From an uncultured Gammaproteobacteria bacterium (GTDB taxonomy: Bacteria; Patescibacteriota; Microgenomatia; UBA8517): DNA of 64,000 bases. Of this stretch, positions 36,748-59,037 are shown piece after piece. The stretch's first letter is position 1. Every line of letters begins with the position of its first letter. The DNA is taken from NCBI GenBank assembly GCA_964431555.1, contig CAYSJW010000033.1, positions 9,389 to 73,388 on the forward strand, given 5' to 3'. The translations under genes were made by a program, and so were the position numbers. Under the pieces are notes generated by a model. That model was not told the origin of the DNA. It made no database searches and saw only the letters and a list, made by a program, of their open reading frames with translations.

Positions 36748-38475
36748 TTAATGAAACTCCTGTTTTTCTTCACTAATAAAATCACTCCAACCTTGTATTA
36801 AATTCAATATCACAGCAAAGGGAGTTTCGATAAGAAAATTAAATAGAATTGCAACAACATTGTATTCTTTCCATTTCCTTGCCAGAAACGCTCCAACTTT
36901 TGCGATAGGAACAGACAACATGTCTAAAAGAAAACTTCCAATAGTAGTATCTTCATCAACATTTAATTCTTTAGATTTATTTTTTATAGCAACAGCGGCA
37001 AAAAATGTGAGAGAAATTGTAAATGTGTCAAATATTACTGAAGTCATAGGCAATCCTCCGATATAGAAAAGATACGCTATACCTATAAATGCAAATATAA
37101 TAATTTCTATGTACAAAGAGACCATAAATATTTTTAACAATGATGGTTTTCCATTATCAAATTTAATCTGGAAATATCTTTTCTCAGAATTTTTATATAC
37201 AATACTATTTGCTAGATTAATAACTTTATTCATATTGTCTTTTGATGGAAGTTTAATAATTGAAACTAATAAAAACATTACAAATGTCGGGATCAAAAAA
37301 TCAATAATCGCTGCTTTTAGATTAAACCCCTCATAAAATAACTTCGCCAGTGGAACTTCTATTATAAAAAAGGTAAACCAGTTAGATAAAAATACAGACA
37401 AAGTAGAAAATATAGCTAATCTTATCAATCGAGTTTTAAGTGTAGAGTATCTTTTTTTATATGCTATCTTAATTTCCTTTTCAAACTTAATTTTATTATC
37501 AAAAATCTTATATAAAATATTTGGTTTGTTTTTATACTTCAATAAAATATCGTCAATCAATAAAAATATTGTATCAACATATTCAGCAACTCTAGTGAAC
37601 TTTTTTAAAATTTTATTCTTTAAGTCAATTTCAATTTGATTCCAAATTTCAGGTAATTTTTTTGAGATAATTCTGATCTCATCCTCTTCTAAAATATTCC
37701 AATTTGGAAAATTAAGCTTTAGTAAAATATAAGAAATATATTTATCGTCTAAATCATATAAAGTTTTAATTGTCGATATCAATAAAAACTTTTTAATTTC
37801 ATCATTCTTCAAAAAATCATTTGGTTCAAAACGAACTATATTTTCTAAACATTTTGACATTGCATTAATAATTCCATATTCCTTAAATGGATTGGTTAAT
37901 ATTTCTTCTATTTCACAGGCAGAAATTTCAATTAAAAAATTAATATAATTTACTCTTTGTTTAAACGCAAAAATATCAAATTTTGAAGATGAATCTAAAA
38001 AAATTAAATATTTTTTAATAATTCTCTCAACATCAATTAACCTTTCAAGAGGTATACTATTATTCGGTAAATGACCCCCTCTTATCAATTCAAATGTGAG
38101 GGTTTCAGCTAAATATTTTATATCAAACTTTTTAACAGTAATCTTAGCTATATTTGGAAATATTATTCTTTTTAAAATTCTTTCTATTGCTCCTCTTCTT
38201 AAAGCATTGTCATCTTTCCAATCAATAATCTTTCTTATTTTTTCATAAATTTTAGCTATCCTTGATGCTACCTCATCAACATGTATTGGGGTAAAACTCT
38301 CATTTTCATTTAATAATTCAAAAATATAATTATCTAGAAGTTTGACTATATATTCATTTAATATTTCACCATCGTCATTAACTGTTAAAGCCATATTATT
38401 TTTAATACTAGTTAAATCAATAGAATCATTGTTTTTATGCAAACTTAAATCTTCATTTTGATAAATAACAGCCAT
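36748..38475 (-). CDS. hypothetical 575-aa membrane protein (large cytoplasmic N-terminal domain plus about 5 C-terminal TM helices)
   Basis: No recognisable motif. Last gene of a five-gene minus-strand string. Confidence 0.5.
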   Translation of the reverse strand: MAVIYQNEDLSLHKNNDSIDLTSIKNNMALTVNDDGEILNEYIVKLLDNYIFELLNENESFTPIHVDEVASRIAKIYEKIRKIIDWKDDNALRRGAIERILKRIIFPNIAKITVKKFDIKYLAETLTFELIRGGHLPNNSIPLERLIDVERIIKKYLIFLDSSSKFDIFAFKQRVNYINFLIEISACEIEEILTNPFKEYGIINAMSKCLENIVRFEPNDFLKNDEIKKFLLISTIKTLYDLDDKYISYILLKLNFPNWNILEEDEIRIISKKLPEIWNQIEIDLKNKILKKFTRVAEYVDTIFLLIDDILLKYKNKPNILYKIFDNKIKFEKEIKIAYKKRYSTLKTRLIRLAIFSTLSVFLSNWFTFFIIEVPLAKLFYEGFNLKAAIIDFLIPTFVMFLLVSIIKLPSKDNMNKVINLANSIVYKNSEKRYFQIKFDNGKPSLLKIFMVSLYIEIIIFAFIGIAYLFYIGGLPMTSVIFDTFTISLTFFAAVAIKNKSKELNVDEDTTIGSFLLDMLSVPIAKVGAFLARKWKEYNVVAILFNFLIETPFAVILNLIQGWSDFISEEKQEFH

Positions 38476-38555
38476 AGAAAATTACTACATTATATCATTA
38501 TGCCATTTTAAAATATCCACCTTTACAAAAAGATGTAATAATAAAAGATTATAAT

Positions 38556-39207: not shown

Positions 39208-39831
39208 TCACAAAATCTTATCAAAATAATTTTTAACTTTTTCTTCTAAAAAATTTTTAATCTCCTTCCAATTTATATACTTTACAAAATCAGGTTCTGG
39301 ATCATTTTCAGCATCTTGAAAATAAATCATAGATTTAAGGATAGCTAGTTTCTGAAATGAAACATCTTTATATTTTTTTTCAAACATTTCAAATATGTAA
39401 GAAAGAGAATTCCTTTGAAGAATAACGTAAATATCTATAAAATCTTTTTTAGATCCTCTGGAAGATATCGCTGATAATTTCATACAGGCGATATCAATTA
39501 TTGAAGCCATATAAATACCTTCAAATTTTATTAAATTTTTAACCAAAGGGTATTTATACAATAAAAAACTTACTTTTACGTCATCAATTAATAAATCCAG
39601 AGTTCCATCGGATTCATGAATTATTTTTGGTTTATATGGCTTTAAATTTTGTAAAATGAGATCTCTTTTTGGAAAGTTGTATGCAAAAAAATCTAGATCA
39701 AAAGATTTTCTATGACCAATTTGTAGAGCTAAAGCAGTACCACCTGCTAGATAAAATTCTTTTAAAATATCTAAATTCTTAATATTATTTAGAACCTCTC
39801 TTGTTTTCGGATAAAGGGTTTCTGGATACAT
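39208..39831 (-). CDS. AbiEii/AbiGii-family nucleotidyltransferase (type IV toxin-like, DUF1814)
   Basis: FYLAGGTALALQIGHRKSFDLDFF matches the GGTAL...R.S.D.DF signature of AbiEii nucleotidyltransferases. Confidence 0.7.
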   Translation of the reverse strand: MYPETLYPKTREVLNNIKNLDILKEFYLAGGTALALQIGHRKSFDLDFFAYNFPKRDLILQNLKPYKPKIIHESDGTLDLLIDDVKVSFLLYKYPLVKNLIKFEGIYMASIIDIACMKLSAISSRGSKKDFIDIYVILQRNSLSYIFEMFEKKYKDVSFQKLAILKSMIYFQDAENDPEPDFVKYINWKEIKNFLEEKVKNYFDKIL

Positions 39832-40082
39832 AGTACTTCCTTTTTATTGATATCAAAGTACAAAGAAAAAAAATTTCCTGTTTTTGGAGATATTTTTTTA
39901 CTACTTTTTAAAACTTCAACAATTTTATTTTTATTAATATTTTTTATAAGCCATCTAAAGGAATCAATATCTCCATATTCCAAAACTCTTTCAATAACAA
40001 AGGCATAATTTTCATCAAGATCTAAAGAATCAATCTTAACATCCCATAAATACTTATTTAAAAATGAAGGGATTTTATTCAT
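39789..40082 (-). CDS. small upstream partner of the AbiEii-like NTase (candidate antitoxin/regulator)
   Basis: 97 aa. Overlaps the NTase start by 43 nt on the same strand, in upstream position. Confidence 0.45.
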   Translation of the reverse strand: MNKIPSFLNKYLWDVKIDSLDLDENYAFVIERVLEYGDIDSFRWLIKNINKNKIVEVLKSSKKISPKTGNFFSLYFDINKKEVLCIQKPFIRKQERF

Positions 40083-40150
40083 TATTAAATTATATCATCA
40101 AATATAATACATCTATAAATTAAAATTTAGAAGATAAACATTTTTAAATT

Positions 40151-41695
40151 TTAAAAATTAGAATCCTTTTCGCTAAAACTTAATACTTCAAAACTAAAGA
40201 TATCGACGGAACTATCCTTATAACATTCTTTATCTAGATTTGCTTTCTGATGACAAAGCTGACTTAAATACTCATCTAAATTCCAATCAAATTCTTCAGC
40301 AACTTGTGGCAAAAAAGTACCGGCATTAAAACCTTTTTTCACTACAACTCCATCAATACCCAATCTTATATTTTTCCAATCTTTAACCTTTTTTCTCGGC
40401 GTCATAATAGATATTTCTATATCAATATCTTTTAATTCATCATATGTTAATGGTTTAAATCTTTGGTCCTTTGTAGCACTTGAAATTGCGGTTTCTTGAA
40501 TAACTTTATACATAGGTTTTGTAGGTTCAAATTCACCTATACAACCTCTTAAATATCCATTTTTTTTCAAGGTAACGAAAACTCCCATTGGTGTATTTAA
40601 TAAATGCGAGTCTTCTTTATAATTTTCTAATTCTCCCTTTGAAAGAAAGCTCTCTAGTGTATTTCTTGCCAATTTTAAAATTTTAATCTTATCTTGCTGA
40701 TTTACTCTTATAGTAAATTTTTCTAAGAAATCAGAATAACCCACAATGCTTACATATCCAACAACTCTATTTTTATCATTCGTTACATCCCCCGAATTTT
40801 TATAGATTAAATTTTTATAATTTTTGATTCCTAAAATATTTCCAATTTCTAAGGCTGTTTCTATCGCGTCTTTAGCACAAGCTGTGGTCACTAAACCATT
40901 ATATGAACTTTCATTAATTTCTTTTAAAGTATGTTTAAATTTTTCAACATCACCGTCTAATATTGAATTTATTGTTTTATAATCAATATTATTAGCATCT
41001 TCATACTTGGGATAATGTGAAAGATCGGAACTTACTACCAATAATGTGTTTTCATCGAAATTATATGAAAGCTTTTGAGCAAGCATCATTAGAAAATACT
41101 CATCTACTTGACCAATCAATATTGGAGTAATTTTAAAATCATTTAAAACAGATTGTAGGAAGATTAGCTCAATTTCCAAAGAATGTTCTTCTGAATGAGG
41201 ACTGGAATCTAATTTTACAGAATCATTGTTAACCAATGACTTAATTAAGTCCTTATCTAATTCTACTTTTCCTAAAGGAGTTTCCCAATAATCATTGTCA
41301 TCAATTGCAATAAAATTAAAGCTTCTTTTATGACTTGAACCCAAAAGAATAACTTTAGAATAATTATTATCTTTTAATTGCTTATAACCATAAGCTGCAA
41401 CTTGTCCAGAATAGGATAATCCTGCGTGAGGTGTAATTAATATTCTAATTTTTTCCTTAATTTCAAAATTTTCTGCATTATTAAGAAAAATTGATATCTG
41501 TTTTTCAAGATCTTCTTTCTTAGATGGATAAAAAGTTCCTGAAACAGCAGGTTTCCTTATCCTTTCAAAATTTCTATTTACTTCTGGAACCTTAATGTCA
41601 ATTTGATTTTTTTTGTTTAAATAAAATATCCAAAAAATAAGAAATATAAATAGAAAGAAGATAAGAATTTTAATAAAATATCTTATAGATAACAT
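40151..41695 (-). CDS. TM-anchored fusion of a Memo-like domain (AmmeMemoRadiSam system protein B) and an AMMECR1 domain (protein A)
   Basis: N-terminal TM. ILITPHAGLSYSGQVAAYGY is a MEMO1-family motif. C-terminal GVFVTLKKNGYLRGCIGEF is the AMMECR1 LRGCIG signature. Confidence 0.75.
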   Translation of the reverse strand: MLSIRYFIKILIFFLFIFLIFWIFYLNKKNQIDIKVPEVNRNFERIRKPAVSGTFYPSKKEDLEKQISIFLNNAENFEIKEKIRILITPHAGLSYSGQVAAYGYKQLKDNNYSKVILLGSSHKRSFNFIAIDDNDYWETPLGKVELDKDLIKSLVNNDSVKLDSSPHSEEHSLEIELIFLQSVLNDFKITPILIGQVDEYFLMMLAQKLSYNFDENTLLVVSSDLSHYPKYEDANNIDYKTINSILDGDVEKFKHTLKEINESSYNGLVTTACAKDAIETALEIGNILGIKNYKNLIYKNSGDVTNDKNRVVGYVSIVGYSDFLEKFTIRVNQQDKIKILKLARNTLESFLSKGELENYKEDSHLLNTPMGVFVTLKKNGYLRGCIGEFEPTKPMYKVIQETAISSATKDQRFKPLTYDELKDIDIEISIMTPRKKVKDWKNIRLGIDGVVVKKGFNAGTFLPQVAEEFDWNLDEYLSQLCHQKANLDKECYKDSSVDIFSFEVLSFSEKDSNF

Positions 41696-41763: not shown

Positions 41764-43377
41764 ATGTCCATAAAAATATATAAATATATTATAGCTACTA
41801 TATTAATTATATTCTTAGTACTATTAATTTTTACAAATTCAATAAATACTTTAATTCCAAGCAGGGATTCAGGTACCTTTCTTTATGCAGGAAAAGAAAT
41901 TCTTCAAGGCAAAATTCCATATAAAGACTTTTGGGAACACAAAACTCCCCTGATATTCCTAATCAACGCTTTTGCATTAAAACTTTTTAATGGAGACTTC
42001 TGGGGATTATGGATTATCGAATTAATATTTTTATTCCTTTCTTTGTTATTATTTTTTATATTAACAAACAAGATATTTATATTTAATAATTCTATTATAG
42101 GACTAATATTTATTTCTTATTATCTAATAAAATTTTTAGAAGGAGGTAATAGGGTAGAAGAATTTGCTATATTATTTCAAATTGTTATATTAGTATTATT
42201 TTACAATTCACATAATACTTCTAAAATAAAGTCTATTAAAATTTATTCATTTATTACTGGAGTTTTTACTGCTTTTCTTTTCCTTTTAAGACCAAATTTA
42301 ATAGGTATATTTCTTTCAATATTAATAACTAATTCATTCTTACTCTTAAAAGATAATTATAAAAAATATATTAATAACATTATTTTTGTAATTTTAGGTA
42401 TTTCATTACCAATTATTTCCATAATTGTCTTTTTCTCATATAAATCTGCAATAATTGATTTTTTTGATCAAACAATAATCTTTAATATTATTTATTCAGA
42501 TTCAAATATTGAAAAAAAAATTATCTCCATTTTGAACTTCATTAGAACGAACTATAATGTTTTCATTTTAACTTTTATAGGGTATATATTACTTTTAAAG
42601 GAAAAAAAGAAAAATATTATAGTAACATTATCTTCTATATGGCTCCCAATTGAAATTATTTTTTCTTCAATTTCTGGAAGAGAATATAAACATTATTATT
42701 TATCACTTTTAATACCGCTTATTATTCTATTAATTTATCCATTAAATAAATTATTTTCTAAATTAGACAAAATAACAAATAAAAATATTTTTAAAATTTC
42801 TATATTAAATGTATTCATAATTATATCTTTATATTTTATTTTCTTTAACAAAGAAATCATTAAAATATTTATAAATTTTGATGAGAAAAAACCTTTTGAT
42901 AGAAATTTTAACTTTCGTTCATTTCTTTATAACAATTTTGATGAACATAAGGATACGATTTCAATTATTAAAAAGGAAACCACCAATTATGACAAAATAA
43001 TTATCTGGGGAAGCGAGCCATCTTTGTACCTTATATCAAATCGAGTTTCAGCCTCAAAATACTTTTACCAATTTCGTCTTTTTCATCCAAATTACGATGT
43101 AGATGGTCACCACATAAACAGGTTTATATATGAAGTCAAATACAATTTACCAAAGTTAATTATCGATGCTTCAGAAAGTACATACGATAAAGATATCGGT
43201 GAATATTCAGCATTACCTCCTTTAGACAAAGAAAAGATGTTGAAATGGAAAGAAAAATCCAATTACAAAAATTATTATATATTGGACGAACTTGTAAATT
43301 TTATAGAAGAAAACTATTTATTTATTTCAAAAACTTACCACAATAAATGGTTAGTTTATAAACTGAATAATTTGTAA
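41764..43377 (+). CDS. GT39/ArnT-like membrane glycosyltransferase (PMT_2 family)
   Basis: RDSGTFLYAGKEIL.G..PYKDFWEHKTPL N-terminal loop typical of PMT_2/GT83-39. About 11 TM helices, then a soluble C-terminal domain. Confidence 0.65.
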   Translation: MSIKIYKYIIATILIIFLVLLIFTNSINTLIPSRDSGTFLYAGKEILQGKIPYKDFWEHKTPLIFLINAFALKLFNGDFWGLWIIELIFLFLSLLLFFILTNKIFIFNNSIIGLIFISYYLIKFLEGGNRVEEFAILFQIVILVLFYNSHNTSKIKSIKIYSFITGVFTAFLFLLRPNLIGIFLSILITNSFLLLKDNYKKYINNIIFVILGISLPIISIIVFFSYKSAIIDFFDQTIIFNIIYSDSNIEKKIISILNFIRTNYNVFILTFIGYILLLKEKKKNIIVTLSSIWLPIEIIFSSISGREYKHYYLSLLIPLIILLIYPLNKLFSKLDKITNKNIFKISILNVFIIISLYFIFFNKEIIKIFINFDEKKPFDRNFNFRSFLYNNFDEHKDTISIIKKETTNYDKIIIWGSEPSLYLISNRVSASKYFYQFRLFHPNYDVDGHHINRFIYEVKYNLPKLIIDASESTYDKDIGEYSALPPLDKEKMLKWKEKSNYKNYYILDELVNFIEENYLFISKTYHNKWLVYKLNNL

Positions 43378-43407: not shown

Positions 43408-43484
43408 TGGGGTGGGTGAGCGGATTCGAACCGCCAGCCTCTTGCTCCACAGGCAAGCGCTCTAACCATTAAGCTACACCCACC
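43408..43484 (-). tRNA. tRNA-His (anticodon GTG), with encoded G-1 and 3' CCA
   Basis: Cloverleaf folded by hand. Anticodon loop CTGTGGA. G-1 pairs with C73. The CCA is encoded in the genome. Confidence 0.8.
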
Positions 43485-43575
43485 ATTATATAAATTTTAC
43501 TCCAATTTATAACTTTTTTAAATAAAAGTCTTTTTCTATTGAAATTATATTCTAAATAGTTTAATAATTAATTAT

Positions 43576-43893
43576 ATGATTGATATCACTATATCAACAA
43601 TTGTTGGATATCACTTAATGAAACTCATAAGTCACCCTAAATCCAAAATACGCAAAAAATTACCATTAATAAAAATTAAATTTATACAACTGTCGCCAAA
43701 TTTAACTTTCGCTGTAAAAGGAAAGGTAATATGGTTTCACCATTGGATTTGCTTCTCGGTAATACTGATAATATCAATAATTGTTGATAAAGGTTTCCTT
43801 TCCTTACCTTTGATTAAAGGTGCTTTATTGGGGGGTATCATACAGGGATTTACCTATCCGGACTGGAAAAGAATCATACAAAATAAAAAATAA
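43576..43893 (+). CDS. hypothetical small membrane protein
   Basis: 105 aa with two hydrophobic segments. Confidence 0.3.
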   Translation: MIDITISTIVGYHLMKLISHPKSKIRKKLPLIKIKFIQLSPNLTFAVKGKVIWFHHWICFSVILIISIIVDKGFLSLPLIKGALLGGIIQGFTYPDWKRIIQNKK

Positions 43894-43963
43894 AAGTATT
43901 AATTTTCTAGTAATTGACAAGATATAATTAAATATTTCAAAATTAAAATATAAATCTTAAAAA

Positions 43964-44767
43964 ATGAAGTTAAAAGATAAAAAACCAAAAATTAAAGTTG
44001 AAGAATTAAAAGAAGAATCCACAAATATATCATCCGGGAATATTGATACAACTAAAATTACATCATTTAGTCAACTAGATTCTATACCTCCAACTATTTC
44101 AGATTCTAAAGATTCTCAACTTAAAAATAATCTTAATGAAGAAATCAACGAAAATGACACATCCCTAAATAACATAAATGATATAGAAAAAAGTTCAGAT
44201 AGTGACAAAACTACGTCAGAAAATGAAAAAATATCTTCTGAAGAAGTAAAAGAATGGCTAAAAGATGTACGACCAGATACAACAAAAGAAAACCAAAAGG
44301 GGAGAGGTATTGGAGGAAAGGTTTTTTTTATAGTTATAACTCTATTCTTGTTAGGTGCTATATCAGGTGGATTTATTTATTTTCAGAAAGGTGTTAACAA
44401 ACCTTCTATAAATCCAACACCAACAGAAACCCCAAAAATTACACCTACAATTACTAAAGCTCCTGAAGAGATTGTCAATTTGAAGAATATCTCCATAAAT
44501 GTTTTAAACGGATCAGGGATTTCTGGTGAAGCAGGTAGAGTAAAGGACCTACTAATAAAAGGTGGCTTCGATAATGATAAAATAAAAACAGGTAATGCAG
44601 ACTCTTACGACTACTCGAATATAAATTTAAGCGCGAAAGAAAATATTTCAAATAAAGTCTTAGACATTATTAAAGATACATTAAAAGATAAATACAAAAT
44701 TTCTAAAGATATAAAAACTCTTAATGAAGAATCAAATTTTGATATTGAAATTATTGTTGGAAAGTAA
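43964..44767 (+). CDS. LytR_C (cell-envelope-related transcriptional attenuator C-terminal) domain protein
   Basis: Disordered S/T/N-rich N-terminus, TM, then INVLNGSGISGEAGRVKDLLIKGGF (LytR_C-like). Confidence 0.6.
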   Translation: MKLKDKKPKIKVEELKEESTNISSGNIDTTKITSFSQLDSIPPTISDSKDSQLKNNLNEEINENDTSLNNINDIEKSSDSDKTTSENEKISSEEVKEWLKDVRPDTTKENQKGRGIGGKVFFIVITLFLLGAISGGFIYFQKGVNKPSINPTPTETPKITPTITKAPEEIVNLKNISINVLNGSGISGEAGRVKDLLIKGGFDNDKIKTGNADSYDYSNINLSAKENISNKVLDIIKDTLKDKYKISKDIKTLNEESNFDIEIIVGK

Positions 44768-44920
44768 ATCTATACCCTAGTATTTATAAATTTTTATATT
44801 CTTCTTGAATCTTGATATAATATAACGAACAATTAATATTAAAATAATTCTTAAATTAGATTTGTAAAAAAAGTATTTTCAATTGTAAAATATTATTTTG
44901 TTAGGTTATTATCTTTAAAA

Positions 44921-45005
44921 GCCGAGGTGGCGGAATGGTATACGCGCAAGACTTAAAATCTTGTGTCACAATTGTGATGTGCGGGTTCGAGTCCCGCCCT
45001 CGGCA
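44921..45005 (+). tRNA. tRNA-Leu (anticodon TAA), class II long variable arm
   Basis: Acceptor GCCGAGG/CCTCGGC. Anticodon loop CTTAAAA. Confidence 0.8.
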
Positions 45006-45054
45006 CATCAAATTAATTTTTTAGATATTAATCCTCTTTTTAAAATATTACTTT

Positions 45055-45127
45055 CGGGGATTGGCTCAGTTGGTAGAGCGCACGGTTTGGGACCGTGAGG
45101 TCGCCAGTTCGAATCTGGCATCCCCGA
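45055..45127 (+). tRNA. tRNA-Pro (anticodon TGG)
   Basis: Acceptor CGGGGAT/ATCCCCG. Anticodon loop TTTGGGA. Confidence 0.8.
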
Positions 45128-45199
45128 CATTATAATAAGTAAAAAAATATAAAAAAATATTGTACGTTTAAAAAATCTATATTATTATATTTAAATTTC

Positions 45200-45270
45200 G
45201 CGGGATTAGTTGAGCGGTTCAACACCTCCCTTCCAAGGAGGAAAGACGGGTTCGACTCCCGTATCCCGCT
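45200..45270 (+). tRNA. tRNA-Gly (anticodon TCC)
   Basis: Acceptor GCGGGAT/ATCCCGC. Anticodon stem CCTCC/GGAGG with loop CTTCCAA. Discriminator U. Confidence 0.75.
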
Positions 45271-45286
45271 CAAATTAAATAAAATG

Positions 45287-46990
45287 TTATTGATTTAACA
45301 TTGATGATTCGAGAAAAGAGATAAAAATAGGGTGAGGAGAAAGAGGTCTGCTTAGATATTCCGGATGAAATTGAACACCGATAAAAAAGGGGTGATTTTT
45401 TATCTCAATAGCCTCAACCAAAGAATTAAATGGAGAAATACCCGAAATAATCAATCCATTTTTTTCAAAAATTTCCCGATATTCATTATTAAACTCATAC
45501 CTGTGCCTATGACGTTCATATATTAAAGTACCTGAACCTGAATACCTCACCTTTTTAGAAAATAAAGGATTAGGTAAAAACCAAGGATTATTCCTTTTAC
45601 CTCCGTATTTTTTATAAATACTTTCAAGTTTGGTACCACTTTTAACAATGCATGGCCAAGCTCCTAAACGAATAGTTCCGCCATATTGATGTTTTTTTAG
45701 ATACTCTTTTTGATTATCCATTAAATGTATTACTTTATGTGATGATTTTGGATTAACTTCTTGAGAATTTGCATCTTTAAAGCCCAAAATACTCCTTGAG
45801 AATTCTATAACTGCCATCTGCATTCCAAAACAAAGTCCTAAATACGGAATATTGTTCAATCTTGCGTAATTAACCGCCCTAATTTTTCCTTCAACGCCTC
45901 TTTTTCCCCATCCTTGTGGTACTATAATTCCACTAATACCGTTAAATATTTCTTTTATTTCAGAATCTTTTAAACTTTCTAAATCTTCTGAATTAACCCA
46001 TTTTATTTTTAATTTAACCTTTAATTTAAATCCCGCATGTTTTAAAGCTTCAACAACAGAAACATAAGCGTCTTCCAAGAGATAATCTCCTGTCTTTTGA
46101 TATTTTCCTACAATAGATATGTTTATTTCTTTAATTGATCGATCAATTCTTTTAATTAAACTTTTCCACTCTTTTAAATCGTTTTTAATGATTTTTATAT
46201 TCATTTTTTTAGCAACCTTTTTTGTAAAATTCTGTTCCTCCAATTTTAAAGGGACCTTATAAACAGAATCTAAATCTGGTGATGATATAATATTTTCCAA
46301 AGGAACACCTGATGCGAGAGAAATTTTTTCTTTTCTTTTTTCATCTACATCTTTTGAAGCTCTACATACAATAAAGTCAGGCTGTATACCCATTGTATTT
46401 AAAAAATAAACTGATTGTTGTAATGGCTTTGATTTCAATTCGCCAATATTGCCTGGAGTAGGTAAATATCCAACATGTATAAAGCAGATATTGTCTGGTT
46501 CTTTTAACTTAATCCTTCTTGCCGCTTCAAAAAACAAAAGTCCCTCATACTCTCCTACAGTTCCACCCATTTCAATTAAAATAACATCAGCTTTATTTTC
46601 TCTTCCTGCTATTTCCCATCTTTTTATAATTTCGGGTGGTATGTGGTGATACGGCTGAACACAAGCTCCTTCGTAATCCAATGATCTTTCTTTATCCAAA
46701 ACACTCTTATAAACCTGACCATTTGTTGTATAGTTATACCTAGACAAATTAGTATTAATAAATCTTTCATAATGACCTAAATCCTGATCTGTTTCTAACC
46801 CATCGTGTGTTACAAAAACCTCTCCATGTTCTAAAGGATTCATAGTACCTGCATCAATATTAAGATACATATCGCACTTGAAGGCTGTTACCTTAACACC
46901 GTATGATTTTAAAAGTAAACCCAAGGAAGCTGTAAATATCCCTTTTCCTAATCCAGATAGAACTCCGCCGGAAACAATTATATATTTCAC
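45287..46990 (-). CDS. pyrG: CTP synthase
   Basis: MKYIIVSGGVLSGLGKG N-terminus. Glutamine amidotransferase triad region (GLCFGMQ). 567 aa. Confidence 0.95.
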   Translation of the reverse strand: MKYIIVSGGVLSGLGKGIFTASLGLLLKSYGVKVTAFKCDMYLNIDAGTMNPLEHGEVFVTHDGLETDQDLGHYERFINTNLSRYNYTTNGQVYKSVLDKERSLDYEGACVQPYHHIPPEIIKRWEIAGRENKADVILIEMGGTVGEYEGLLFFEAARRIKLKEPDNICFIHVGYLPTPGNIGELKSKPLQQSVYFLNTMGIQPDFIVCRASKDVDEKRKEKISLASGVPLENIISSPDLDSVYKVPLKLEEQNFTKKVAKKMNIKIIKNDLKEWKSLIKRIDRSIKEINISIVGKYQKTGDYLLEDAYVSVVEALKHAGFKLKVKLKIKWVNSEDLESLKDSEIKEIFNGISGIIVPQGWGKRGVEGKIRAVNYARLNNIPYLGLCFGMQMAVIEFSRSILGFKDANSQEVNPKSSHKVIHLMDNQKEYLKKHQYGGTIRLGAWPCIVKSGTKLESIYKKYGGKRNNPWFLPNPLFSKKVRYSGSGTLIYERHRHRYEFNNEYREIFEKNGLIISGISPFNSLVEAIEIKNHPFFIGVQFHPEYLSRPLSPHPIFISFLESSMLNQ

Positions 46991-47049
46991 TTTAAATTTA
47001 AATACTACAATTTACACTTAAGTTGTCAACAATAAGAAAATATAAGATG

Positions 47050-47121
47050 TGCGCCTAGGGGGAGTCGAACCCTCATCATCGGTTCCGAAGACCGCTGCTC
47101 TATCCATTGAGCTATAGGCGC
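47050..47121 (-). tRNA. tRNA-Arg (anticodon TCG)
   Basis: Acceptor GCGCCTA/TAGGCGC. Anticodon loop CTTCGGA. Confidence 0.7.
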
Positions 47122-47165
47122 AATATTCTAAGAAATTATACATTTTTTAATATATAATTTCAGCT

Positions 47166-48278
47166 ATGATATATAATTCAAAATTTGAAAATATACAAAC
47201 ACAAATTTCAAGAATTGAAGAAGAAATACGCAAAACTCCTTATCACAAAGGCACAGAACATCATATCGGAAAATTAAGAGCTAGATTATCAATCCTAAAA
47301 GAAAAACTTTTAGAATATTCACAAAAAAAGGGAGCAAGGGAAGGTTACGCCATAAAGAAGCAAGGAGACGCTACAGTTATCTTAATAGGACCACCATCAG
47401 TTGGAAAATCTACACTTTTGAATAAACTCACAAATGCAAAAAGTAAAGTTGCTCCATACGCATTCACAACAGTTTCCGTAATTCCAGGTATGATGAATTA
47501 TAAAAATGCTAATATTCAAATTCTAGACGTTCCAGGCTTAATTGAAGGAGCCGAGGAAGGGAAAGGAAGAGGAAAAGAAATTTTATCAGTTGCAAGAGGA
47601 GCTGACTTAATTCTTATTATAGTCGATCCTGAACATATATCATCTATAGAAAGAATTAAACACACACTCGAGAAAAACGGAATCAGACTTAATCAAAAAC
47701 CTCCCCAAGTTGTTATTGATAAAAAAACACAAGGAGGAATAGTAATAAGAAGTAACATTTATCAAACAATCTCTAAAGATTATATAAAAGAAATTGCTCT
47801 AGAATTTGGCATTAAGAATGCTGAAATAACCATAAATGAAAATATAACTCTTAACAGACTTATTGATGCGTTCAGTAAAAATCGAGTATACATTCCTTCT
47901 TTAATCGTCATAAATAAAATTGATCTTCTCAACGATAAAAACCACACTAAGATTTGTACTGATGATTCAAATCATCAAAGTATAATACACATCAGTGCAG
48001 AAAAGAGTATAGGCCTTGATGAACTAAAAGAAAAAATTTGGGAAACACTCGAATTTATTACTGTTTATTTGGTTCGTCAGGATGAAGAACCCTCATTTTA
48101 TAACCCTATTGTTATAAAAAATGGAAGTACACTTAGAGATATAGCTAATTTATTAGGTACAGACTTTGTTGAAAATAAAAGAAAAGCAATAATATGGGGA
48201 AAACATGCTAAATACCCGGGCCAAGAAGTATCGTTATCAACAACCGCAGAAGACGGACTCCAAGTCAGATTTATATGA
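47166..48278 (+). CDS. OBG-HflX-like GTPase of the DRG/Rbg1 type with C-terminal TGS domain
   Basis: G1 GPPSVGKST, G3 DVPG, G4 NKID. The N-terminal helix and C-terminal TGS-like tail resemble archaeal/eukaryotic DRG. Confidence 0.7.
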   Translation: MIYNSKFENIQTQISRIEEEIRKTPYHKGTEHHIGKLRARLSILKEKLLEYSQKKGAREGYAIKKQGDATVILIGPPSVGKSTLLNKLTNAKSKVAPYAFTTVSVIPGMMNYKNANIQILDVPGLIEGAEEGKGRGKEILSVARGADLILIIVDPEHISSIERIKHTLEKNGIRLNQKPPQVVIDKKTQGGIVIRSNIYQTISKDYIKEIALEFGIKNAEITINENITLNRLIDAFSKNRVYIPSLIVINKIDLLNDKNHTKICTDDSNHQSIIHISAEKSIGLDELKEKIWETLEFITVYLVRQDEEPSFYNPIVIKNGSTLRDIANLLGTDFVENKRKAIIWGKHAKYPGQEVSLSTTAEDGLQVRFI

Positions 48279-48289
48279 AATAAAAATTG

Positions 48290-48362
48290 TGCCCCTGGGA
48301 GGAATCGAACCTCCAGTCTTTCCCTTAGAAGGGGACTGCTTTATCCGTTAAGCTACAAGGGC
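48290..48362 (-). tRNA. tRNA-Arg (anticodon TCT)
   Basis: Acceptor GCCCTTG/CAGGGGC. Anticodon loop CTTCTAA. Confidence 0.7.
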
Positions 48363-48470
48363 TTAAATTATTTCTGAAAAATAAACTAAATTTAAAAGTC
48401 AAAAACAATTGGATTATTTATAATTATTTATTGATATTCTAACAGATTATGATTTAATAATAAATATAAC

Positions 48471-49565
48471 ATGACAAATTTTTTAAGTAATGAAAATACA
48501 AAATCTTCATCTTCTAATGGTTACGAATTACCAAAAAAAATAGCAATACTTTACAGTTTTGTTAAAAGAGAATATTTTCCTACAGAAGCTCAATATATCA
48601 CCGAAAAAGACGCAGAAAAAGATGCAATACTTGTTGCTGAATATGTAAAAAAATTTGGAATAGAAGTAAAGTTATTTCCAGCTAATTCCAATATTGCATT
48701 GTATCTAAGAAAATATAAACCTGATATGGTTATAAATTTGGTTGACTCTATTAAGGGTATCGAAAGTTTACAAAGCGCGATACCCGGAATTTTGGAAATA
48801 TTAGACATTCCATATACAGGCGGAGACATACTAGGTTTGTCACTCACTACTAATAAATTTTTAGTTAAAAAACTTCAAGAACAAAATGGCGTTCCTGTTC
48901 CTCACTATCAGATGTTTAATACCTATAGCGATTATCTTATACCAAGTCTTAGATTTCCACTAATTTCCAAACTAAATGAAATTCATGGAGCCGTAGAAAT
49001 CACCAAAGATGCTGTTTCTGAAAACGAAAAACATTTAAGAGATAGAATTAAATATCTAATCCAAACTTATAAACAACCCGTAATTGTTGAAGAATTCATT
49101 GTAGGCAGAGAAATCACTGCAATTCTCTTAGAAGGATTAAACAAAAAAGTATACTTGGCAGAAAAAGTTTTTCATAAAGAAAACGAAAAATATGTTTTCG
49201 CTACCTTTGAAGACCAATGGATTAACAAAAATCCTGTCTTTGAGTATGTAAAATATGATGATCCAATACTTAGAGAGTATGTGAAAAAAGCTTTTGATGT
49301 CACTAAAATGTATGACTACGCAAAATTTGATATAAGATTAGATCAATCAGGAAGATATTTTTTTATAGACAGTAATTGTAACCCTGCCTTTGGCCCCAAA
49401 GAAGCAGATGTTGCAATTTCAAATATTTTATCACTATATGGAATTTCCTTTTCCGAAATATTAAAACGTTTATTACTTAACACAATGCGTGATGCTCAAG
49501 GCAAAGAAAGATTACCAGTTCCTGACACATTTCAAAATCAATTACAAGGTAATAACTTTTTATAA
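48471..49565 (+). CDS. ATP-grasp domain protein (D-Ala-D-Ala ligase-like fold)
   Basis: N-terminal Rossmann-like pre-ATP-grasp region (KIAILYS.). Central ATP-grasp region. The Ddl SxEhevS signature is not evident. Confidence 0.45.
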   Translation: MTNFLSNENTKSSSSNGYELPKKIAILYSFVKREYFPTEAQYITEKDAEKDAILVAEYVKKFGIEVKLFPANSNIALYLRKYKPDMVINLVDSIKGIESLQSAIPGILEILDIPYTGGDILGLSLTTNKFLVKKLQEQNGVPVPHYQMFNTYSDYLIPSLRFPLISKLNEIHGAVEITKDAVSENEKHLRDRIKYLIQTYKQPVIVEEFIVGREITAILLEGLNKKVYLAEKVFHKENEKYVFATFEDQWINKNPVFEYVKYDDPILREYVKKAFDVTKMYDYAKFDIRLDQSGRYFFIDSNCNPAFGPKEADVAISNILSLYGISFSEILKRLLLNTMRDAQGKERLPVPDTFQNQLQGNNFL

Positions 49566-50044
49566 ATTTTAATCTTTTCTTTAAGACTTATCTTTGCAAA
49601 ACGAGGAGAAGGAGATGGTAAAGAAAAAATTGATATTTTAGGATATTTCAGAATTAATCCTTTAAAATTCTTCCTAAACAATTTTTCAACATATAAACTG
49701 GTAAAAAATATTTTTTCTATCGGATTATTCCTTATAATATTTTTGATTTCCACTATATTGTATTTTATCACCTTAAGATTCTCATCAGAATTATTATTCT
49801 TTATTCTTTCACACTCTGAAATAATATCAGCTATCGCAATTTTTAAATCAATAAGAAATCTTTTCTTATCTTTTATATTATTTAATTTTTTATCATAAAC
49901 TTTTTCCATTATCTTCCAGAATTGATTTATCCTTCCACCATAATACCAATCACCCCTTAAACCTTCTTTGCCAGGGAAACTTCCTAATATCAAAAATTTG
50001 GATTTTTGAGGTACAAAACTTCCGAAGGGATGTTTTTCTATCAT
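49538..50044 (-). CDS. uracil-DNA glycosylase superfamily protein (family 6/HDG-like?)
   Basis: FLILGSFPG motif A-like region early in the protein. 168 aa. Confidence 0.45.
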   Translation of the reverse strand: MIEKHPFGSFVPQKSKFLILGSFPGKEGLRGDWYYGGRINQFWKIMEKVYDKKLNNIKDKKRFLIDLKIAIADIISECERIKNNNSDENLKVIKYNIVEIKNIIRNNPIEKIFFTSLYVEKLFRKNFKGLILKYPKISIFSLPSPSPRFAKISLKEKIKIYKKLLPCN

Positions 50045-50079
50045 TAAAACACCGTAAAATAAAATTACCTATAATTTTG

Positions 50080-50151
50080 AGCGGTGGACCGGATTTGAAC
50101 CGGCGACCTTCTCCTTGGCAAGGAGACATTCTACCACTGAACTACCACCGC
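50080..50151 (-). tRNA. tRNA-Gly (anticodon GCC)
   Basis: Acceptor GCGGTGG/CCACCGC. Anticodon loop TTGCCAA. Confidence 0.8.
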
Positions 50152-50159
50152 TTATTATG

Positions 50160-50232
50160 TGCCGAGAGTGTGAGTCGAACACACATCTGACGCTCTTCAG
50201 GCGCCCGCCGTGACCACCTTGGCTATCTCGGC
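50160..50232 (-). tRNA. tRNA-Phe (anticodon GAA)
   Basis: Acceptor GCCGAGA/TCTCGGC. Anticodon stem GGCGC/GCGTC with loop CTGAAGA. Confidence 0.8.
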
Positions 50233-50303
50233 AAACTCTATATATTTTATCAGATCTTACAAGCAAAAATTATATATAAAAACCTAATATATACTCAAAA
50301 TTG

Positions 50304-50377
50304 TGGGCTTGTCAGGATTCGAACCTGAGACCTTACGGATGTAAGCCGTACGCTCTAACCAACTGAGCTACAAGCCC
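50304..50377 (-). tRNA. tRNA-Val (anticodon TAC)
   Basis: Acceptor GGGCTTG/CAAGCCC. Anticodon loop CTTACAT. Confidence 0.8.
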
Positions 50378-50498
50378 TTAAATCTTTTTTCACAATTTAA
50401 GGAAAATTAACTTATTTAAAACTTTAAATATTATACAAAAAACTAATAAAAATTATAAGATAAGATAAAACAGGATAGGATAAAATCCTTTTAGAATA

Positions 50499-53060
50499 TC
50501 AACTTTCATATTTCATAAAAAATCTTTTTTTAACCAACTCCGTAACATAAAAATAAGCAAAAAGATCAAAAATTATTAAAAACCAAATTATTTTCGGGAT
50601 TTTTGCAAAACTAAAAATAGAAATTTCAAATATTGCCAAAAATACAACGGATAGTATAGAAATTACACTTAACCAAAAAAGCCACTTACTTGGCTTACTC
50701 TTATAAAAGGGGAGTTTTGTCCTTATAGCAAAGGTAACCAACATCTCGGAAATTGATGATTGAACAAACCAGGCTGTTTGAAAAACACTAGGACTTACCT
50801 TAAACAAAAAAGCCATGGGGATTATCAAACATAAATCAAAAACAGAACTTATAAAACCAAAGTAAATCATAAAATTTTTTATGTAATTTAAATTCCATTT
50901 ATTTGGTTTCTGAGTAAATCCTTCATCAACATTGTCAGTAGCTATCGCAAATAAGGGTATATCACTAATAAGATTATTCAACAAAATTTGTTTTGGAAGA
51001 AGAGGAATAAAATTCAAAAACAGCGAAGATAATGCGACGGTGAACATATTTCCAAAATTCGCTGAAATAGTATTTAAAATATATTTCATAATATTACCAA
51101 AAGTTTTTCTGCCAGCTTCAATTCCATCGACTAAAACTTTTAAATCTTTTTGCAAAAGAATTATATCCGAAGCTTCTTTGGCCACATCCGTACCAGTATC
51201 AACGGTAATTCCAACATCAGATTCTTTTAATGCAGGTGCATCATTGACACCATCTCCTAAAAAACCCACAATATGTCCCTCATAATTCAAAACTTTAACG
51301 ATTTCATATTTTTGAATTGGCGATACTCTTGCAAATACAATACAACTTTTCGCATAATCCACAAATTCATCACGAGTGCAATTTTTTAATTCATCACCTG
51401 TGATAACTTCATTATCAGAAAACTCTATTCCAGATTCCTTTGCAATACTTTTTGTAACAGTCAAACTATCTCCACTTAAAATCTTTAAAGATATACCCAT
51501 ATCCAAAAACTTCTCAATGGCTACTTTAGTCGTAGTTTTAATCGGATCTTTAAAAAGAATAATTCCCAGATAAATCAATTCTTTTTCGTCACTTGAATTT
51601 GATTTTTTTATATCACAATATCTTAAAGCCAAAGATATAGCTCTTAATCCTCTTTTTTCATATTTTTTAACCTCGTTTAGAATAAATTTTTTAATTTTCT
51701 CCGATAATTTTAATTTTTTGTTATCCTTATAATAAAAGCTTGAAATACTAATTATTGATTCTGGTGAACCTTTAACTATTAAAAAAGTCTCGTCACCACT
51801 TTTTACCAAAACACTCATCCTTCTTCTTTCATAATCAAATTCATTTTCATCAATAACCTTATACTTACTCATCTCATTTTTATAACTTCTGGCAAAATAG
51901 CTCTCCCAGATAGCTCTATCTGTTGGATTTAATTTTTGGCCAATTTTACTTTCAGAAGCTCCTTCAGTACAAAGCATAGAATAAATAATTAATTTTTTAT
52001 CTCTTATTCCATCATTATTTTTATAATCAAAAAGAGTAAAATTTCCTTCCGTCAAAGTACCTGTTTTATCCATACACAGCGTATTTATATTTCCAAAATC
52101 CTCAACAGCTGCCAATTTCTTAACAACAACCTTTTTTTTTGCCATTTTAATAGCTCCTTGAGACAGAGTTACTGTGATTATTGCTGGAAGCATTTCAGGA
52201 GCAATTCCTACAGCCAAAGCTATGGCAAACATAAAAGAAGAAAATATACCTTTATTTAAAATAGCGTTAGATAAAAAAATAAAAACTGTCATCAAAATTA
52301 TCAAACGAAAAAGAAACCTACTAAATTTAGATATTTGTATCTGAAAATCTGTTTCCGGTTCGTTTTCTTTAACAACCTTTACAATTTTTCCAAATTGAGT
52401 TCTTAAACCAGTTTCAACAACCACCCCAAGAGCATTTCCTTCGACAACAGATGTTCCCATGAAGACCATATTCTTCATATCTGAAATCAAAGAATCTGGG
52501 GAAATTATTACGTCTGCTTCCTTGATTACTGGAAAAGATTCACCAGTCAATATCGCCTCATTAAGTGATAAAGCATCAGTTTTTATAAGCCTTATATCCG
52601 CCGGTACTATGTCTCCTATGTGTAGTGAAACTATGTCACCTGGAACAATATATTCATGTTCTATCCTAGATAATCTACCGCTTCTAAAAACATTAGAATA
52701 TCGCTTTACATATTTTTTAAGTTTTACTAGAGTTCTTTCAGCTTTATATTCTTGATAAAATCCGAATAAAGCAGAAAGAACAACAAGTAAAATAATTACT
52801 ATCGAATCTATTTTCTCACCTAATATGAGAGAAACAACTGAAGCAAATATTAATACAAGAGTAAGCCAATTTTTAAATTGAGAAATAAGTACTTTAAAAA
52901 AAGAAAGTTTTTTTTCTTCGCCAAAATTATTTAAACCATAGATCTTCAAACGCTTATAGGCTTCATCATCTGACAATCCACTTCTTTTTGTATCAAATTC
53001 TCTTAATACAGAATTAATATCTTTACTACACCATTTATTATCAAAACCTTTTTCATTCAT
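50499..53060 (-). CDS. cation-transporting P-type ATPase (P2/P3-like, Ca2+/Mg2+ type)
   Basis: LTGESFPV, DKTGTLTEGN (phosphorylation site), GDGVNDAPALK hinge. 853 aa with about 10 TM helices. Confidence 0.9.
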   Translation of the reverse strand: MNEKGFDNKWCSKDINSVLREFDTKRSGLSDDEAYKRLKIYGLNNFGEEKKLSFFKVLISQFKNWLTLVLIFASVVSLILGEKIDSIVIILLVVLSALFGFYQEYKAERTLVKLKKYVKRYSNVFRSGRLSRIEHEYIVPGDIVSLHIGDIVPADIRLIKTDALSLNEAILTGESFPVIKEADVIISPDSLISDMKNMVFMGTSVVEGNALGVVVETGLRTQFGKIVKVVKENEPETDFQIQISKFSRFLFRLIILMTVFIFLSNAILNKGIFSSFMFAIALAVGIAPEMLPAIITVTLSQGAIKMAKKKVVVKKLAAVEDFGNINTLCMDKTGTLTEGNFTLFDYKNNDGIRDKKLIIYSMLCTEGASESKIGQKLNPTDRAIWESYFARSYKNEMSKYKVIDENEFDYERRRMSVLVKSGDETFLIVKGSPESIISISSFYYKDNKKLKLSEKIKKFILNEVKKYEKRGLRAISLALRYCDIKKSNSSDEKELIYLGIILFKDPIKTTTKVAIEKFLDMGISLKILSGDSLTVTKSIAKESGIEFSDNEVITGDELKNCTRDEFVDYAKSCIVFARVSPIQKYEIVKVLNYEGHIVGFLGDGVNDAPALKESDVGITVDTGTDVAKEASDIILLQKDLKVLVDGIEAGRKTFGNIMKYILNTISANFGNMFTVALSSLFLNFIPLLPKQILLNNLISDIPLFAIATDNVDEGFTQKPNKWNLNYIKNFMIYFGFISSVFDLCLIIPMAFLFKVSPSVFQTAWFVQSSISEMLVTFAIRTKLPFYKSKPSKWLFWLSVISILSVVFLAIFEISIFSFAKIPKIIWFLIIFDLFAYFYVTELVKKRFFMKYES

Positions 53061-53127
53061 GCTCTTATCTAATAATACAACATGAAGAGTTATTAGAAAA
53101 TGAAGTTATTAATTTTTTAATTTTTTG

Positions 53128-53209
53128 TGCGCGGGACAGGACTTGAACCTGCACGCCTTACGGCACAGCCTCCTCAAGACTGCGTGTATACCAATTTCAC
53201 CACCCGCGC
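53128..53209 (-). tRNA. tRNA-Leu (anticodon GAG), class II
   Basis: Acceptor GCGCGGG/CCCGCGC. Anticodon stem CAGTC/GGCTG with loop TTGAGGA. Variable arm GCC-GTAA-GGC. Confidence 0.75.
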
Positions 53210-53247
53210 ATACAGCAAACTATATATAACCAAAAAACTCTACAGTG

Positions 53248-53333
53248 TGCCGAAGAGAGGATTTGAACCTCCACGCTCATATTCGAGCACACGCTCCTGA
53301 AGCGTGCCTGTCTGCCAATTCCAGCACTTCGGC
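53248..53333 (-). tRNA. tRNA-Leu (anticodon CAG), class II
   Basis: Acceptor GCCGAAG/CTTCGGC. Anticodon stem CACGC/GCGTG with loop TTCAGGA. Long variable arm. Confidence 0.8.
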
Positions 53334-53488
53334 TTACTAAATCTCTTAAAACACATAAAATAAAAATACTTAAATATTATTCAGTTTTATATCTCTAAAA
53401 ATTAAACCTAACCTCAAATTGCTTATGAGAATCATTCAATTATATCATTTTAATGCAGCCACATAAATCCTAAAATACAATAAATCAT

Positions 53489-54745: not shown

Positions 54746-55110
54746 ATAATTTTTGATTTTATATTTATCTGTCTAAAAATGTATTTATAAGCATCTAATA
54801 CCCAAGTATTGGCACAAGAAACAATTAAAAAAAGTGCATCCATCAGTTGATTTTTATAAAATGCTTCATTAAAAAGTTTATTTATAATTTTTTATCTTTA
54901 AATAAAACAAAAAGAAAACTTTTAAAATTTCGGTTGATGATTATTTTTTTCTGCTTTAAGAATTCTTTTGATTAAATAATTTAAAACCTCTCTCTGCTTA
55001 AATTTTCATACACAATGTCTTTTTTTCAACGACTTCAAAAAATTTACAAATATTAAAAAATAAATCAATTTACAAAATTTAATTTATCCAAAAAACATTT
55101 CAATATCTTT

Positions 55111-56502: not shown

Positions 56503-56704
56503 ATAAACATCTTAACTCAAAAATAATAAAAGTAGTTATTGTAAATCTTAGCTGATATTATCTATCTTCGGTAATATAAATGTCTTAAATTTTTATCTGT
56601 ATCTTTAATTTTTAAATTTGATCTTATTAAATCTAATTTTAATAGCTTTTTAAGATTAATAAAGTCATATGAAGTACTTCTTGCTACCTTGAAAATTCTT
56701 GATG

Positions 56705-56776
56705 TGAGCCCAGAGGGATTCGAACCCCCAACCAACTCCTTAAGAGGGAGCTGCTCTACCATTGAGCTATGGGCCC
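56705..56776 (-). tRNA. tRNA-Lys (anticodon CTT)
   Basis: Acceptor GGGCCCA/TGGGCTC. Anticodon loop CTCTTAA. Confidence 0.8.
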
Positions 56777-56913
56777 ATAAATTTATGAGATTTAATTTTA
56801 ATAATTTAAACAATTTTATTTAATTAAAAACAAACAATAATTAATTTTATCAAATCATTAAAACAAATTCACACCCACAACTTGACTTTATAATCTTAAA
56901 TATGTAATTCTGA

Positions 56914-57579: not shown

Positions 57580-57828
57580 TCTCTAAAATCTTCTATTTCT
57601 TGACAAAACTAAACTTTTATTTGATAAACCATGTTAAAATTATTTTAATTTAATGAGTCTTAATTTACGTCACAGTTTAAAAACATACTTTATTAAGTTG
57701 CTTTAATTCTTATAAAAAAATATAGCTTTATTATCATCGATTCATACAAATGTGTATTCATTAAAAAAGAAAATCAAAGAAGATAAAATTAAAAATTTAT
57801 ATATACTTCAATCTATCAAACATTAATT

Positions 57829-58584: not shown

Positions 58585-58661
58585 TAAATATACTATAACA
58601 ATGTATATAATATTTTTAATAAGAACCTATAATATTATTATTCAGTAATTATTAATAATAT

Positions 58662-58690
58662 TTGACAATCTTATAGTAATGTGTTATAGT
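58662..58690 (+). promoter_or_regulatory. consensus sigma70-type promoter TTGACA-17 nt-TATAGT
   Basis: -35 TTGACA (58662-58667), exact 17-nt spacer, -10 TATAGT (58685-58690). Predicted transcription start near 58697. Confidence 0.6.
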
Positions 58691-58696
58691 ACACTT

Positions 58697-58782: not shown

Positions 58783-58793
58783 TAAGATAAATT

Positions 58794-59027: not shown

Positions 59028-59037
59028 TATTGATAGA

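Follow-up and report, generated by a model that had tools for sequence, protein, structure and literature searches.

A DUF1814 nucleotidyltransferase gene and an overlapping DUF6922 gene form a conserved pair and probably a two-gene toxin-antitoxin module

The window analyzed here is a stretch of 64,000 nucleotides of contig CAYSJW010000033.1 (positions 9,389 to 73,388 of the forward strand), on the minus strand of which a gene for a 97-aa protein runs into a gene for a 207-aa nucleotidyltransferase (NTase). The 97-aa protein belongs to the Pfam family DUF6922, and the pairing of DUF6922 with this type of NTase is close to obligatory across the hundreds of uncultured bacteria in which we found it. 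Where one of the two genes has decayed, it is the NTase. Taken together with variable genomic contexts and co-divergence of the two proteins, this one-sided decay fits a toxin-antitoxin (TA) pair. The explanation that we consider probable is therefore a two-gene TA module composed of a DUF1814 NTase toxin and a cognate DUF6922 antitoxin, the latter representing a fourth, so far undescribed family of partners for such toxins.

The membership of the NTase in the AbiEii/DUF1814 family is supported by its Pfam score, its fold and its motifs. In a HMMER search against the Pfam AbiEii model (PF08843) the 207-aa protein reached 52.1 bits (E = 1.1e-13) and thus passed the gathering threshold of 22.5 bits, so that the AbiEii-type NTase named in the original prediction, which had proposed this search as a check, withstood it. 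A total of 7,390 homologs was found, and all close ones carry a precomputed PF08843 annotation. The AlphaFold2 (AF2) model of the NTase has a predicted local distance difference test score (pLDDT) of 95.3 and a predicted template modelling score (pTM) of 0.89. Its best match in the PDB as determined by Foldseek is JHP933 (E = 1.1e-7, template modelling (TM) score 0.60, 19% identity), and further matches include the MenAT1 complex and MenT1 (6e-6 to 2e-4), MenT4 (2.3e-5) and TglT/MenT3 (1.6e-4). Aminoglycoside and lincosamide NTases are interspersed among the DUF1814 proteins in this ranking.

Two sets of loci were used to examine the pairing of the two genes. A profile scan restricted to one genome per species yielded 80 DUF6922-anchored loci, and metagenome contigs yielded 75 NTase-anchored loci for which 250 nt or more were available upstream. 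The 80 DUF6922 loci are distributed patchily over more than ten phylum-level groups, with hosts among the Patescibacteria (Woesebacteria, Dojkabacteria, Saccharibacteria and Parcubacteria), Chloroflexota, Bacillota, Omnitrophota, the Planctomycetes-Verrucomicrobia-Chlamydiae (PVC) group, Spirochaetes, KSB1, WOR-3, Elusimicrobia and others. Of these 80 loci, 76 match the NTase of the window in tblastn, and in 74 the N-terminus of the NTase adjoins the 3' end of the small ORF. In the NTase-anchored set DUF6922 is located directly upstream in 74 of 75 loci and about 270 nt upstream in the exceptional locus L118, which brings the count to 75 of 75. Thus, the small ORF is conserved next to the NTase homologs, as the original prediction required of a genuine pair. 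Furthermore, the identity matrices of the two proteins correlate over 116 pairs (Mantel r = 0.74), a value reached by none of 999 permutations.

The surroundings of the pair vary. Homologs in the flanks are shared by 135 of 10,731 locus pairs (1.3%) and represent generic families or local synteny among related genomes of the candidate phyla radiation (CPR); in the annotated examples the neighbors are housekeeping genes that differ between genomes. Neither a conserved third gene nor a defense-island context was found across the examined loci. The pair therefore displays the generic hallmarks of TA modules, i.e. an operon with the small gene first, adjacency of the two genes in distant taxa, a self-contained module and variable contexts. 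Some contigs carry more than one copy. On one Saccharibacteria contig (L046) two DUF6922-NTase pairs are arranged in tandem (5001-5881 and 6000-6810), the second of which is far more divergent, and two copies (L065 and L074) lie about 6 kb apart on the same Bacillota contig. Eight loci (L003, L004, L006, L010, L014, L016, L019 and L034) stem from metagenome-assembled genomes labelled 'uncultured Gammaproteobacteria/Pseudomonadales', and their pairs are closest to those of Patescibacteria; these could represent mislabelled bins or horizontal transfer.

Decay of the pair is one-sided. Beside an intact DUF6922 gene the NTase is absent in L023 and L034, cut to its first 13 codons in L001, reduced to a C-terminal remnant in L017 and L035, internally deleted or frameshifted in L032 and L073, and truncated in L026, L027, L064, L069 and L072. 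This amounts to 12 of the 80 DUF6922-anchored loci, whereas an NTase without DUF6922 was encountered in none of the 75 NTase-anchored loci (Fisher's exact test, p = 3.3e-4). Each of the anchored scans is biased towards an intact anchor but not towards an intact partner, and the comparison is therefore fair. Such a pattern is predicted for a toxin with an indispensable antidote and not for mutually dependent subunits. The degraded copies L017 and L074 sit among modules of the MNT/HEPN type, as judged by reading the translations and not by hidden Markov models. At L017 (3488-6296) a pair of a 209-aa helix-turn-helix (HTH)-like protein and a 207-aa NTase is found upstream and an MNT-like/HEPN-like pair downstream, and at L074 (4027-4892) an MNT/HEPN-like pair lies upstream.

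The active site of the NTase was analyzed by comparison of 134 intact NTases taken from the collected loci, which have a mean pairwise identity of 41%. The signature GGTAL...R.S.D.DF, on which the original prediction was based, is located at residues 30-47, within the quoted stretch of residues 26-49 (FYLAGGTALALQIGHRKSFDLDFF). Motif I comprises GGT at residues 30-32 followed by R41-K42-S43-F44-D45-L46-D47 and conforms to the Pol-beta type (hG[GS] ... D-h-D). G30, R41, S43, D45, K118, R125, D130 and D133 are retained in all 134 relatives, D47 in 131 and D113 in 130; the residues of motif I are also invariant in an alignment of closer homologs. D79 was considered as the carboxylate of motif II and rejected, since it is invariant among close homologs only and variable across the 134 relatives; D113 appears to be the better candidate for this role. 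Motifs III (catalytic Lys) and IV (Asp) are regarded in the literature as specific for tRNA NTases and DUF1814 toxins, and motif IV as unique to DUF1814. In MenT1, mutagenesis has shown that T39, D41 (with D43), K137 and D152 matter, and the spacings of S43/D45/D47 and of K118-D133 (15 residues) equal those of T39/D41/D43 and K137-D152. The Ser/Thr of MenT1 and MenT3 is dispensable for toxicity and yet is the site of antitoxin-induced auto-phosphorylation, and the same has been reported for T65 of AbiEii. The absolute conservation of Ser43 fits such a regulatory role, and by analogy Ser43 may be a regulatory phospho-acceptor.

The small partner also belongs to a Pfam family. It scores 56 bits against the Pfam model DUF6922 (PF21956; cut-off 27 bits), with its residues 7-58 covering model positions 1-52 of 52. 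A word-indexed search gave 56 near-full-length homologs at 47-68% identity, and an exhaustive profile search with DUF6922 gave 2,504 clusters at 50% identity, the top 150 of which are without exception stand-alone proteins with lengths of 69-186 aa. Since the two proteins have 56 and 7,390 homologs, respectively, and both pass their Pfam thresholds, neither ORF arises by chance. To our knowledge, no function has been assigned to the Pfam family DUF6922; no paper in the literature searched names the family, nor was its pairing with short AbiEii-like NTases found described there. The AF2 model of the protein, whose structure the original prediction had proposed to predict, is confident (pLDDT 87.8, pTM 0.76) and consists of four helices at residues 26-75 followed by a C-terminal tail of low confidence. 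Foldseek detected no fold match to this model in the PDB (best E = 3.2), including AbiEi (6Y8Q) and MenA1, or in BFVD, and sequence and profile searches of the PDB gave no meaningful match, including the 8AN5 chains. Likewise, neither an HTH nor an AbiEi family was detected in the 97-aa protein by Pfam, NCBIfam or PADLOC. The suspicion that this partner lacks an obvious HTH and belongs to a non-canonical family was thus borne out in these searches; the family is DUF6922, which is distinct from AbiEi/COG5340.

In the mechanism that we infer, the NTase would be toxic by attaching nucleotides to tRNAs at their 3' CCA ends and thereby blocking translation, in analogy to MenT1, MenT3, MenT4 and AbiEii. 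The DUF6922 antitoxin would be made from the shared transcript, just upstream of the toxin, and would neutralize it, most likely by direct binding to the active site. Binding may trigger auto-phosphorylation of Ser43, a mode of control reported for three antitoxins of this toxin family that are structurally unrelated (type VII logic). In the clade of the window the basic C-terminal tail of the antitoxin is encoded within the start of the toxin gene. Since ribosomes translating the antitoxin would cross the ribosome binding site and the start codon of the toxin, synthesis of the toxin would be coupled to that of the antitoxin and probably limited by it. More specifically, DUF6922 could be a type VII-like antitoxin that forms a structural class of its own, in which the four-helix domain and the basic tail dock onto the toxin and drive auto-phosphorylation of Ser43, with the overlap adding translational dosage control; this extension is put forward tentatively, as a possibility rather than as an expectation. 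A preprint (bioRxiv 10.64898/2026.01.19.700257) has moved AbiE itself to type VII, in which the antitoxin induces auto-phosphorylation of the toxin. The label 'type IV', which denotes an antitoxin acting without contact to its toxin and under which the pair was originally proposed, is therefore probably wrong and is doubtful even for the founding AbiE system.

The junction between the two genes shows features that are relevant for their expression. In the window the overlap comprises 43 nt, and as seen from the small ORF the NTase is read in the -1 frame. The ATG of the NTase consists of the final base of the small ORF's Leu84 codon and the TG of its Cys85 codon. The "invariant" Cys of the small protein is therefore at least in part the start codon of the other gene. 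Overlaps in the -1 frame with one of two lengths are present at 66 of 75 junctions of the DUF6922-anchored set, 27 of them measuring 43 nt and 39 measuring 52 nt. The tail of the small protein that follows the Cys is conserved in close relatives only, and the overlap length is retained; in the window protein this tail carries about +3.8 of the net charge of +4.5. When the N-terminus of the NTase was synonymously recoded as a null model, the small frame stayed open in about 63% of cases, and the third frame is open in 22 of the 66 real sequences. Thus, selection on the overlapping tail is plausible, with modest support. A strong Shine-Dalgarno (SD) core is found 5-16 nt before the NTase start in 33 of 75 loci (44%), as compared to 10% of control windows, and before the small ORF in 10 of 67. 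The original description of the arrangement as typically translationally coupled could not be upheld, since typical overlaps comprise 1-4 nt and not 43-52 nt, about half of the NTase starts have an SD core of their own and many relatives have no overlap.

In front of the small ORF, a perfect extended -10 element (TGATATAAT) is located at 40089-40097 (-). It ends only 6 nt before the ATG and no SD sequence is present, which suggests a leaderless transcript; the message of the small ORF is thus possibly leaderless. The same extended -10 element (TGATATAAT) occurs at 38489-38497 (-), just upstream of the gene for a 575-aa protein, hinting at a very short or absent leader there as well. Within the AT-rich window the motif was found 12 times against 9 expected, a difference that is not statistically compelling and represents no enrichment. 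Scans for promoters and terminators were uninformative at 25% GC, the generic promoter scan being at chance level.

A different role of the overlap would be programmed ribosomal frameshifting or transcriptional slippage that gives rise to some DUF6922-NTase fusion product. The prevalence of the -1 frame with fixed overlap lengths across phyla and the A-runs within the overlap at many loci would suit such a process, as would the protein P0112, a 294-aa DUF6922-NTase fusion (L164, 3001-3885; junction 3256-3300) that switches frame exactly at the A-run of the overlap. In the DNA of P0112, however, TCAAAAAAC replaces the CCAAAAAC of its relatives, a 1-nt insertion that turns A5 into A6 and closes the canonical start frame of the NTase by a stop after 15 codons. 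P0112 is a singleton from one contig of the Joint Genome Institute (JGI) and the sole full-length fusion found (636 bits as compared to 335 for the next match); we attribute it to mutation or to an error in sequencing and see in it no evidence for programmed frameshifting. The idea that fusion is a common architecture was likewise discarded, since P0112 is alone among thousands of homologs and none of the best 150 DUF6922 representatives is fused. In addition, no slippery heptamer is conserved, the window holding only CGAAAAC, a separate start codon for the NTase exists at every junction, often with an SD core, the two genes do not overlap in about half of the NTase-anchored loci, with gaps of up to about 65 nt, and the small frame is open only modestly more often than in the null model. 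Frameshifting or slippage is therefore very unlikely.

Several points weigh against a TA module. TM-scores of the NTase model against MenT proteins are only 0.43-0.60 at a root mean square deviation (rmsd) of 5-10 Å, and the non-toxin ANT(2'')-Ia superposes at a lower rmsd (3.6-3.8 Å). No sequence relative of the NTase was found in the PDB, even with a profile of 50 family sequences, placing the subfamily far from proven toxins. Nine AbiEii models of PADLOC match weakly and over partial alignments (best E 1.5e-5, 22.9 bits). The correspondence of the motif residues to those of MenT1 is deduced from spacing and fold and not from a residue-level structural alignment. MenT2 has no detectable toxicity, and toxicity and neutralization in the subfamily studied here are predicted on purely comparative grounds. 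Further points against a TA module would instead favor a two-subunit enzyme, in which the NTase beneficially modifies a target, be it an RNA, a small molecule or an antibiotic, in the way of ANT(2'')-Ia and LinA, and DUF6922 assists it as a positive subunit by recruiting or positioning the substrate, e.g. a nucleic acid. DUF1814 includes non-toxin enzymes, with ANT(2'')-Ia as an example, and JHP933, which has no known substrate, is also counted among its non-toxins; of the fold matches, ANT(2'')-Ia and LnuA show the lowest rmsd values. The DUF6922 partners are basic (median pI 9.35) and the NTases mildly acidic (median 6.4), the opposite of many TA pairs and compatible with a nucleic-acid-binding accessory subunit. 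The local GC content of the pair in the window (0.22-0.26) is the same as that of its neighbors, which are housekeeping genes, and no mobile-element or defense genes lie beside it; no viral contig encoding a relative was found, some CPR lineages with reduced genomes retain the pair in synteny, and a fused form exists once.

The one-sided decay of the NTase argues for the TA module, since mutually needed subunits should decay symmetrically. The patchy distribution over many phyla with unrelated flanks, the tandem or second copies on some contigs, the degraded copies among other TA modules and the strict conservation of motifs III and IV of DUF1814 toxins and tRNA NTases also speak against a two-subunit enzyme, and its single fusion is a homopolymer insertion on one contig. 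We consider such an enzyme rather unlikely. Phage defense by abortive infection in the strict AbiE sense, in which infection would release or activate the NTase and cause cell death or arrest, is a sub-case of the TA reading and not a true alternative to it. Anti-phage effects have been reported for the DUF1814 systems lactococcal AbiE, RlegTA and SanaTA, JGI labels some homologs 'predicted nucleotidyltransferase component of viral defense system', and the PADLOC matches, weak as they are, point in the same direction. On the other hand, the defining AbiEi partner is absent, AbiE of Streptococcus agalactiae gave no protection against 32 phages, and the neighbors at the window and at the homologous loci examined are housekeeping genes, with no defense islands and no viral contig carrying the gene. 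This sub-case therefore appears improbable. The TA module with a toxic DUF1814 NTase and a DUF6922 antitoxin remains the explanation that we prefer.

The features of the locus are compiled in Table 1. The two minus-strand ORFs and their overlap have the coordinates originally given.

Table 1. Coordinates of the DUF6922-NTase locus within the window.
Feature	Position	Strand	Basis
DUF6922 gene, 97 aa, ATG start, proposed antitoxin/regulatory partner	39789..40082	(-)	ORF list and Pfam PF21956
AbiEii/DUF1814 NTase gene, 207 aa, ATG start, proposed toxin	39208..39831	(-)	ORF list and Pfam PF08843
NTase motif I, residues 30-47, GGTALALQIGHRKSFDLD: Gly30/31, Arg41, Ser43 (putative phospho-acceptor), Asp45, Asp47	39691..39744	(-)	alignments
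NTase motifs III/IV, residues 113-133, DIACMKLSAISSRGSKKDFID: Asp113, Lys118, Arg125, Asp130, Asp133	39433..39495	(-)	alignments
43-nt dual-coding overlap: last 14 codons of small ORF (basic tail), first 14 of NTase	39789..39831	(-)	sequence
AAGGAAG, SD-like, 5-11 nt before NTase ATG, inside small ORF	39836..39842	(-)	sequence
68-nt intergenic region upstream of small ORF, candidate promoter	40083..40150	(-)	sequence

The genes flanking the pair also agree with the original description, since a domain search identified a protein with Memo and AMMECR1 domains upstream and one with a SurA_N_3 domain downstream. The former is a 514-aa protein (40151-41695 (-)) with a hydrophobic N-terminus, in which Memo (residues 49-318) and AMMECR1 (residues 340-505) are fused; the two families are often encoded by separate genes. 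Two highly hydrophobic proteins of 575 aa (36748-38475 (-)) and 537 aa (41764-43377 (+)) are encoded on either side and have no Pfam match at E <= 0.001. A group of 13 tRNA genes, including four for tRNA-Leu, is located at 43408-59124, within about 16 kb downstream of the locus; no evidence for a tie between these tRNA genes and the NTase was found in the window. Neither gene of the pair occurs a second time in the window. With respect to an RNA antitoxin or repeats at the locus, Rfam matches were not above noise and no genuine tandem repeat was detected.

DUF1814 (AbiEii/MenT) is among the most widespread toxin families, and AbiE has been called the fourth most abundant phage-defense system. 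Recent work argues that structurally unrelated antitoxins all neutralize DUF1814 toxins via auto-phosphorylation of one active-site Ser/Thr. Should the TA module proposed here prove to be correct, a small folded fourth partner acting on a minimal toxin that has kept its Ser in every member would allow a clean test of how general this auto-phosphorylation is. It would also provide a function for a Pfam DUF with about 2,500 clusters and a tractable TA system for bacteria of the CPR, the physiology of which is largely unknown. If DUF6922 acts as a type VII-like antitoxin, it would represent a fourth independent evolutionary route to one control mechanism, and one that is plentiful in Patescibacteria and Chloroflexota, two groups for which practically no TA biology has been tested. 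If DUF6922 is a positive subunit instead, the pair would mark a non-toxin branch of the DUF1814 family.

Among known systems, JHP933 of Helicobacter pylori (PDB 4O8S/4OK0), a member of the DUF1814 superfamily, is closest to the NTase in fold. Its substrate and partner are unknown, modification of an antibiotic was considered by its authors, and its third carboxylate, E113, has no clearly assigned invariant counterpart in the NTase. AbiE of Lactococcus and Streptococcus agalactiae as well as MenAT3 and MenAT4 share with the pair the PF08843 domain, the four NTase motifs and an operon with the antitoxin first, and the phospho-acceptor position of AbiEii (T65) and MenT3 (S78) corresponds to Ser43. 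Their antitoxins, however, are COG5340 proteins of about 200 aa with a winged HTH and a conserved loop, none of which is present at the pair, where the gene upstream of the NTase encodes DUF6922 in place of AbiEi. In addition, AbiE-type toxins comprise about 290 aa as compared to the 207 aa of the NTase, which matches the AbiEii models of PADLOC only weakly.

In layout and toxin size the closest analogue is MenAT1 (Rv0078B-Rv0078A) of Mycobacterium tuberculosis, in which a DUF1814 toxin of similarly compact size (about 200 aa; the MenT1 chains have 184-195 residues) is likewise preceded by a short non-AbiEi gene directly upstream. In MenT1, as in the NTase, a Ser/Thr is followed by Asp at +2 and +4 and a Lys by Asp at +15, with identical spacing; beyond this, no similarity of the two toxins is detectable at the sequence level. 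The antitoxins differ, MenA1 being a MazE-related protein of 68 aa that is mostly an extended helix, whereas DUF6922 is a folded four-helix domain with a basic tail in a protein of 97 aa that has no match in sequence, profile or fold to the 8AN5 chains. MenAT1 is experimentally proven, whereas the pair presented here is a TA module predicted from comparison. Three antitoxin families have been described for DUF1814 toxins, namely COG5340/AbiEi (MenA3, MenA4), COG4861 (MenA2) and the 68-aa MazE-like MenA1, and DUF6922 is unlike any of them. That DUF1814 toxins are served by diverse antitoxins was already to be expected; what is new here is an undescribed, structurally novel partner family in a pair that is abundant and minimal.

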